DNA of 64,000 bases from Candidatus Bathyarchaeia archaeon. Lineage in GTDB: Archaea; Thermoproteota; Bathyarchaeia; 40CM-2-53-6. The stretch covers positions 64,001 through 128,000 of the forward strand of contig JBEKSC010000001.1 of the NCBI GenBank assembly GCA_049517415.1. Direction: 5' to 3'. Positions 61,646-62,247 of the stretch are shown here, piece after piece (the first letter of the stretch is position 1; the number at the start of each line of letters is the position of its first letter). The position numbers and the translations under genes were made by a program. The notes beneath the pieces were generated by a model. That model was not told the origin of the DNA, ran no database searches, and saw only the letters and a program-made list of their open reading frames with translations.

Positions 61646-61783
61646 TGGTGCCGAGGGCGGGATTTGAATCCGCGATTTGGCCTACGCTTGGTATAGCGTA
61701 GTCAACCCGGTCTTCAGCTTCACCACGATTTGTTCGGGTGCTCTCCCAGGCTGAGCTTTCGAGGGAATCCGTCCTACCTCGGC
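61646..61783 (-). tRNA. tRNA-Phe(GAA) with three introns (8/9: 61758-61775; 30/31: 61719-61734; 46/47: 61676-61702); CCA encoded
   Basis: Spliced product GCCGAGGTAGCTCAGCCTGGGAGAGCACCCGGCTGAAGACCGGGTTGTCGCGGATTCAAATCCCGCCCTCGGCACCA; BHB motifs at all three junctions. Confidence 0.9.
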
Positions 61784-62139
61784 GTTCCCCGGCACCGAGC
61801 AAGGCAGTTTTCCGCTCAACAACTTAAGCCTTCTTCTAGCTGCACCCACCTCATCCAGCGCTGGACTGATCTCGAGCATTCTATCCCAAAAACCTTGTAA
61901 CTCTAGTACACAAACCAGCCGCGGTCGGACAGCTCTAATCAACGTGCGCCCTCGGCATACGTTCGCGTCACAAGACCGTTCACAATTAGTTTCCGTAACA
62001 GGACAATGATTGATATCACACGGGTTCGCCAAGATTAAGCTTGAACGGTAAACCTCTGATGTGGCCTTGGACAAGGCGGAGAACTGAACGAAAGTAGTAC
62101 GAAGGTTTTTAGGCGGAGGTGGAAAGCAGTCGAGCCGTT

Positions 62140-62247
62140 GGGCCGGTAGATCAGCCTGGTATGAGCATCGATGATTGAACACGATGCGATCACATCGTCC
62201 GCTTGGCATGCGGGAGGTCGCGGGTTCAAATCCCGCCCGGTCCACCA
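62140..62247 (+). tRNA. tRNA-Ala(GGC) with one D-arm intron (22/23: 62164-62193); CCA encoded
   Basis: G3.U70 pair, GATC/GATC D stem after splicing, TTGGCAT loop, GCGGG-TTCAAAT-CCCGC. Confidence 0.93.

Follow-up and report, generated by a model that had tools for sequence, protein, structure and literature searches.

The closest described relatives of the introns reported here are the noncanonical bulge-helix-bulge (BHB) introns of Thermoproteales and other TACK archaea. As described in the covered text of PMC4090602 and PMC3218864, they are likewise short, occur several to a gene, combine a 4-bp helix with two 3-nt bulges, and go with an (αβ)2-type EndA. A list in PMC4090602 that ends in "etc." gives the archaeal sites 3/4, 20/21, 22/23, 25/26, 29/30, 30/31, 45/46, 53/54, 56/57, and 59/60. 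Acceptor-stem introns are known at position 3/4 (PMC4090602) and are mentioned in general terms in the covered text of PMC12397907. The published maximum, in the covered part of PMC8450103, is up to three introns per gene. In M. kandleri, trimming precedes splicing, according to the covered part of PMC3695527.

Other systems share single features with our locus. In split and permuted archaeal tRNAs, as the covered text of PMC4033280 and PMC3218864 presents them, flanking non-tRNA sequence also pairs to set the fold for EndA; there, the BHB itself contains the flanks, which bring together halves that are separate or permuted. The interrupted tRNAs of Asgard archaea (bioRxiv 10.64898/2026.10.13.758758; PMC11291895; 10.1101/2023.11.21.568159) are alike in the covered text in that most genes are interrupted, many D-arm introns were missed by annotators, and the same sites were repeatedly gained and lost. 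However, they belong to a different lineage, and "Bathyarchae" is absent from the main text of 10.64898/2026.10.13.758758. In the leader-RCCA antideterminant of RNase P, the leader also pairs with nucleotides (nt) 73 to 75 and lengthens an acceptor-type stem, although the covered part of PMC9433436 concerns bacterial RNase P and positions N(-1)/N(-2) of the true acceptor stem, whereas our case concerns a stand-in stem 10 nt upstream.

The tRNA-Phe gene described here differs from all of these. Its first intron lies at 8/9, which is not among the examples in the open-ended list of PMC4090602, and the central helix of that intron is built from the 5' acceptor strand. It is accompanied by a putative helper in the leader, of which the covered text of PMC4090602 and PMC3218864 makes no mention. 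Unlike split and permuted tRNAs, the gene is collinear, its BHB is made of tRNA and intron alone, and its leader would do no more than hold the partner strand that the BHB displaces. In relatives, tRNA-Phe has as many as five introns, compared with the "up to three" in the covered part of PMC8450103. Position 8/9 was not found in the covered parts of PMC4090602, PMC3239211, PMC4033280, PMC3293823, PMC3218864, and PMC8450103, and a term search of the PMC8450103 supplement for intron positions gave no match. Neither an 8/9 intron in an archaeal tRNA nor a leader helper for tRNA introns surfaced in the literature searched, which was covered in part and, for the intron site, had a scope that stopped short of SPLITSdb, GtRNAdb, Sugahara 2008, Marck and Grosjean 2003, and the Asgard tables. 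Position 8/9 is an unusual and possibly unpublished intron site; the supplement of bioRxiv 10.64898/2026.10.13.758758, which treats introns in the acceptor stem and at junctions, may list it.

The tRNA-Phe gene and its insert at position 8/9

In the window (the whole 64,000-nucleotide stretch of DNA that was analyzed), we found a tRNA-Phe(GAA) gene on the minus strand, with G1 at 61783, A76 at 61646, and an encoded CCA. It is the sole GAA gene that we found in the genome. A carbon-nitrogen hydrolase gene lies on one side, and a divergent tRNA-Ala(GGC) gene followed by a TrmB-family gene lies on the other. A purpose-written intron-tolerant parser resolved the gene into four exons and three inserts, at 8/9, 30/31, and 46/47. 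The first of these had been described in an earlier note made from the sequence, and that description holds; the other two were absent from it. The features are as follows.

61821 to 61837, minus strand: predicted archaeal promoter, inferred from sequence, with a BRE-like purine-rich stretch (61837 to 61829) and a TATA-like box (61828 to 61821)
61787 to 61796, minus strand: putative spare acceptor strand, 5' leader nt -13 to -4, complementary to nt 66 to 75 (9 Watson-Crick pairs and 1 G-U); predicted 5' end of the transcript
61784 to 61786, minus strand: 3-nt linker between the spare strand and G1
61776 to 61783, minus strand: exon 1, tRNA nt 1 to 8 (BHB central helix, nt 3 to 6; outer helix, nt 1 and 2)
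61758 to 61775, minus strand: intron 1, 18 nt, position 8/9, strict hBHBh', with empty-site orthologs known
61735 to 61757, minus strand: exon 2, nt 9 to 30 (D arm)
61719 to 61734, minus strand: intron 2, 16 nt, position 30/31, strict hBHBh' (perfect BHB)
61703 to 61718, minus strand: exon 3, nt 31 to 46, with anticodon GAA at 61715 to 61713
61676 to 61702, minus strand: intron 3, 27 nt, position 46/47, relaxed motif (3/4 central pairs, 7-bp inner stem, no outer helix)
61646 to 61675, minus strand: exon 4, nt 47 to 76, with the 3' acceptor strand (nt 66 to 72) at 61656 to 61650 and the encoded CCA

The TATA-like box begins 45 nt upstream of G1. The expectation that standard tRNA finders could miss this gene was borne out: with default settings ARAGORN reported no gene at all in the window, with the intron option it still missed this one, and so did an Rfam scan. 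The divergent tRNA-Ala(GGC) gene (62140 to 62247, plus strand) has a 30-nt insert at 22/23 (62164 to 62193); ARAGORN labeled it Ser, and Rfam gave it a weak tmRNA score.

We confirmed that 18 nt (61775 to 61758, minus strand) separate U8 from A9 and that they can form the BHB that had been proposed. Nucleotides 3 to 6 pair with the intron at 4/4 Watson-Crick positions, the two bulges read GU|A and AA|A, and the inner and outer helices have 3 and 2 bp. Sliding the insert to 9/10 or 10/11 gives an identical spliced product, and the BHB forms only at 8/9; both shifted boundaries were rejected because neither yields a BHB. Among 200,000 shuffled 18-mers, four Watson-Crick pairs with an inner helix of at least 3 bp occurred in 0.012%, and any 4/4 helix occurred in 0.9%. 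The gene is not a split or permuted tRNA: nt 1 to 76 run in order in one collinear gene, and all three helices consist of tRNA nt 1 to 11 and intron, with no part for the leader.

The enzymes that such an intron calls for are encoded in the genome. The catalytic EndA subunit aligned to its best solved match, 3p1z_B (E 7.5e-39), over the Tyr/His/Lys triad region and a K-P-K loop; the covered text of PMC12397907 describes the loop motif as K-P-(K/R). A second EndA subunit is encoded, and the His region is missing from its sequence. By its sequence, this pair of a catalytic and a noncatalytic subunit marks the genome as a predicted host of the broad-specificity (αβ)2 EndA. RtcB, an RNA ligase, and RNase P RNA are encoded as well.

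The 8/9 insert in orthologs and in other tRNA genes

The suggestion that relatives be searched for the same intron proved informative, as tRNA-Phe orthologs occur both with and without it. A DNA search for tRNA-Phe gave matches in 54/61 related genomes. We discarded duplicates as well as loci that lacked either the 3' strand or a Phe anticodon loop nearby, which left 25 orthologs with the 8/9 insert and 66 in which the same exons are joined directly. Removing the insert yields a standard tRNA, with exons identical to those at the empty sites. There are 24 distinct introns of 17 to 27 nt, short, free of open reading frames, and below the size of a self-splicing core. The intron bases that pair with nt 3, 5, and 6 never vary, and the base opposite nt 4 is C (19 introns) or U (5 introns). 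At inner pairs 3 to 5, 61 of 72 cells are paired, compared with a mean of 39.7 and a maximum of 51 in shuffles, in a set whose members are kin and not independent. Judged from these sequences, the inner stem covaries. The 8/9 insert is very likely a real BHB intron with ordinary splice chemistry, and it is likely to be removed by splicing as an intron.

Three orthologous tRNA-Phe genes (L025, L032, and L041) have five introns, at 8/9, in the D loop, at 30/31 or 37/38, at 46/47, and at 59/60. In L074 and L075 (family f17), 25-nt inserts lie just past nt 8 or 9 of another tRNA; they form no BHB in the 8/9 register and are possibly 9/10 introns.

Inserts at 8/9 also occur in the Leu(GAG), Leu(CAG), Asn, and Cys genes of the same genome, and inserts at 10/11 occur in Glu(CTC) and Trp. 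The Asn and Cys 8/9 central helices have 3/4 pairs. Asn 8/9 inserts were found in other orders of Bathyarchaeia and in three genomes outside the class, and two tRNA-Met genes of Micrarchaeota have unrelated 8/9 inserts of 33 and 37 nt. A scan of GTDB genomes for the 8/9 pattern gave 27 matches: 18 in Bathyarchaeia/Bathyarchaeota, 2 in other archaea, 1 in Micrarchaeota, and 6 in bacteria. No tRNA parse was obtained for the six bacterial matches, which we set aside. By this comparison, 8/9 is a recurrent intron site.

Nearly all of the tRNA genes that we found in the genome carry introns, including introns at 10/11, 14/15, 15/16, and 17/17a; Arg(CCG) is the only parsed gene with none. About 10 genes were misparsed, and their 5' ends were set by hand from the raw sequence. 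No Tyr or Gly(CCC) tRNA gene was found in this genome. Three isolated tRNA 3' fragments (G000:C11:15966, C2:122837, and C16:42055) resemble the att duplicates of integrated elements. A Micrarchaeota genome whose tRNA-Met(CAT) has an 8/9 intron (L045 / G312) encodes EndA as a single 399-aa frame with more than one catalytic-domain match.

On a genus tree built from two proteins and 22 genomes, 17 of them with known intron state, relatives lacking the intron surround the window genome and its sister at 99 to 100% support. Deep nodes are weak (12 to 65%), so intron loss cannot be separated from regain, nor a helper left as a relic from one that was a preadaptation.

A putative spare acceptor strand in the leader

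Nucleotides 1 to 6 cannot serve the BHB and the acceptor stem at once, as the earlier note had argued. Since the BHB takes these nucleotides and the acceptor stem also requires them, the splice signal competes directly with the acceptor stem. The note had gone further, with the BHB itself sequestering the acceptor strand; this did not hold in a 2D folding model, which lacks tertiary contacts and RNase P. In the full precursor with a 3-nt leader, and thus without the spare strand, the acceptor stem won (0.91, versus 0.00 for the BHB helix). With the native 13-nt leader, the acceptor stem fell to 0.00 and the BHB helix rose to 0.98. In the model, then, the spare strand would tip the balance toward the BHB.

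The model gave a mixed picture across genes. The native leader abolished the acceptor stem in 20/26 orthologs and brought the BHB helix above 0.5 in 10/26, versus 0/26 with a 3-nt leader; the helix stayed below 0.5 despite the native leader in the other 16/26 and in the Asn and Cys genes of the window genome. Six Phe genes of genus g5 kept the true acceptor stem whatever the leader. Shuffled leaders often matched native ones, in 11/30 cases for Leu(CAG) and 6/30 for Glu. When the window gene was folded as nascent fragments, its leader paired with the intron or the D arm, and the BHB helix reached at most 0.22. Once all introns were removed, the spare-strand stem was still preferred (0.99), even with the leader cut to the 7-nt copy. 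Intron-less genes with a spare strand presumably mature normally.

The link between spare strand and intron is seen in comparisons of genes. For 43 tRNA genes of the window genome, with Asp and one 3' fragment left out, the upstream 40 nt were scored against the gene's own nt 66 to 75. With a run score of at least 7 as the cutoff, chosen after seeing the data, a spare strand was present in 6/7 genes with 8/9 or 10/11 introns versus 0/36 others (Mann-Whitney P = 0.0002). Most of those 36 genes do carry introns, only further downstream. The spare strand in each gene tracks the acceptor sequence of its own isotype. Among orthologs, which are kin and not independent, it was present in 29/29 Asn genes, in 18/18 Cys genes with the insert versus 0/3 without (9/30 loci were unparsed), and in 2/2 Met genes of Micrarchaeota with the insert versus 0/18 without (10/30 unparsed). 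We then applied a rule set in advance to 40 fresh genes picked from 150 of 237 phylum-wide matches. The spare strand was found in 13/13 genes with an insert versus 0/26 without, several of which have downstream introns; one of the 14 insert matches was rejected, as it is not a tRNA.

The copy does not simply repeat nt 1 to 8. It often extends to face nt 73 to 75, and the base facing nt 73 is U in 19/26 Phe-type genes (A73) and C or U in 34/41 Asn genes (G73), whereas Cys spare strands pair with U73 in only 2/19. Position 8 of the copy is rarely U (1/26 Phe-type, 4/41 Asn). Because the copy tracks the discriminator in Phe and Asn, though not in Cys, and rarely keeps U8, selection for pairing fits better than plain duplication.

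The copy also appears to mark the 5' end of the transcript. It begins 30 to 37 nt past the start of the TATA box in 52/53 Phe-type genes; in 31 genes without a copy, G1 lies at a median of 36, and the TATA start is mostly 29 to 37 nt before G1 in genes without a spare strand. These are predicted boxes, called by regular expression, and 9/93 genes had no call. The copy thus sits where G1 sits in copy-free genes, so it is likely to be the start of the transcript. A pairing of leader nt -18 to -14 with nt 22 to 26, seen in a short fold, was rejected as lying upstream of this predicted start. We likewise rejected the copy as the first exon of a tiny intron, since in most Phe genes the period is 8 to 12 nt, there is no room for a BHB, and U8 is lost.

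Exceptions to the acceptor copy showed another putative form of helper. Among the seven genes of the window genome the sole exception is Leu(GAG), where part of the leader is instead complementary to the D loop.

G000:C1:1121-983, minus strand: Leu(GAG) gene with an 8/9 insert, a long leader, and a TATA-like box ~64 nt upstream (orthologs L271 to L285)

Such a D-loop clamp was present in 14/14 intron-bearing Leu(GAG) genes versus 0/5 intron-less Leu genes, with a cutoff set afterwards. The six Phe intron carriers without a spare strand, all from genus g5, have a matching D-loop segment, so that all 25 intron-bearing Phe genes have one helper form or the other. A D-loop match occurs in 7 more intron-less tRNA-Phe genes. 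A trailer may play the corresponding part at the other end of the molecule.

G000:C2:32586-32480, minus strand: tRNA-Asp(GTC) gene with a 68/69 insert (orthologs L146 and L207 to L229)

This insert interrupts the 3' acceptor strand with a perfect BHB and is 24 to 32 nt long at 23/23 loci of the genus. Nucleotides 63 to 66 enter its central helix, and the trailer is complementary to the freed 5' strand of the T stem at 23/23 loci (scores 6 to 8). In the raw trailers of two Asp genes without the insert (L230 and L231), the complementary trailer is absent. These two genes have an insert near 53/54 and a leader copy of T-arm nt 48 to 56, which is possibly another stand-in strand. A 10-bp pairing between leader and trailer in the Asp gene of the window genome was rejected, as it is not conserved in the genus.

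Taken together, the spare strand is tightly linked to acceptor-side introns, and the comparison is strong evidence for what would be a cis-acting stand-in. It is, however, kept in 25/66 intron-less tRNA-Phe genes (24/46 in the same order, 1/20 outside it), often exactly, by a cutoff likewise set once the data had been seen, so the helper is not confined to intron carriers. Two other accounts of the copy were weighed.

In the first, the intron is real and is cut cotranscriptionally, before nt 66 to 72 exist, and the copy plays no part in folding but is a by-product at the level of DNA, arising by duplication when the intron arrived or as an integration scar. That copies occur without the intron in these 25 orthologs, that carriers are scattered on the genus tree beside well-supported intron-less sisters, and that the six g5 genes have no copy would all fit such an origin. 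Yet duplicating nt 1 to 7 cannot yield a copy that faces nt 73 to 75, position 8 is rarely U, the copy is exact although anywhere from about 2 to 25 nt separate it from G1, and the same link is found with the unrelated introns of Micrarchaeota. An att duplication, in particular, is at odds with copies that are 10 nt apart, lack U8, and extend to face nt 73 to 75; no integrase was found among the five flanking ORFs scanned, which are all of housekeeping types. We consider a by-product unlikely.

In the second, the intron is real and the copy functional, with timing as its main job: the true ends would be shielded from RNase P and 3' processing as long as any intron remains, and permission for an intron at 8/9 would be a side effect. 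In favor are the exact copies seen in many multi-intron Phe genes without the 8/9 intron, whose flanks differ, and the inhibition of bacterial RNase P by leader pairing with the 3' RCCA (covered part of PMC9433436). Against it, the copy is found in 0/36 genes of the window genome that have only downstream introns or none, most of them intron bearing, and in 0/26 genes of the fresh set, several with downstream introns. We give timing as the main job marginally less weight than an origin as a by-product. Finally, it is very improbable that the insert goes unspliced, in a pseudogene or a tRNA that keeps it: the A53.C61 mismatch that closes the T loop (61669, minus strand) could hint at decay, but A53 is shared by 16 parsed tRNA-Phe genes of the genus (G53 in other relatives), the exons are identical to those of intron-less relatives, covariation appears to maintain the BHB, and no second GAA gene turned up in the genome. 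A tRNA that kept 18 extra nt between U8 and A9 would, moreover, have the core of its L shape disrupted.

A proposed order of splicing and trimming

We think it probable that the 8/9 insert is cut by the two-subunit EndA and sealed with RtcB while the spare strand in the leader holds nt 66 to 75, freeing nt 1 to 6 for the BHB. All steps of this scheme are inferred from sequence, comparison, and 2D folding. Transcription would start at about -13, and the leader would capture nt 66 to 75, leaving nt 1 to 6 free for the BHB. EndA would cleave both bulges and RtcB would ligate the exons. After splicing, the true acceptor strand would displace the spare strand, with tertiary folding assisting, and the RNase P cut at G1 would make the exchange final. 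Where the spare strand is absent, the leader segment complementary to the D loop would likely do the same job by lengthening the outer helix.

The leader would then be retained until intron 1 is out, and the earlier proposal that splicing precedes RNase P is better read in this way. Because M. kandleri trims and then splices, the window tRNA-Phe would be an exception for its first intron. RNase P may act more slowly on the stand-in stem because the spare strand pairs with A73-C74-C75; by analogy, the RCCA-pairing effect, if it transfers to this RNase P, could protect that stem.

With somewhat less confidence, we lean toward the view that stand-in strands in the flanks are a general class of element in archaeal pre-tRNAs, which would include the acceptor copies for 8/9 and 10/11, the D-loop clamps of Leu(GAG), and the trailer copy of Asp 68/69. 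A stand-in would be supplied whenever a BHB borrows a strand of a tRNA stem. Such strands would reverse the order of trimming and splicing, would have arisen more than once (in Thermoproteota and in Micrarchaeota), and would license intron gain at sites otherwise closed, hence the orphan helpers beside introns gained or lost.

For annotation, the finding means that the only tRNA-Phe gene of a genome was overlooked by both ARAGORN and Rfam. If the leader does resolve the conflict between splice signal and acceptor stem, then the leaders and trailers of tRNAs would not be waste but built-in aids to folding, through which the order of splicing and end trimming is fixed. This would bear on why tRNA introns persist at some positions and on how new positions open.
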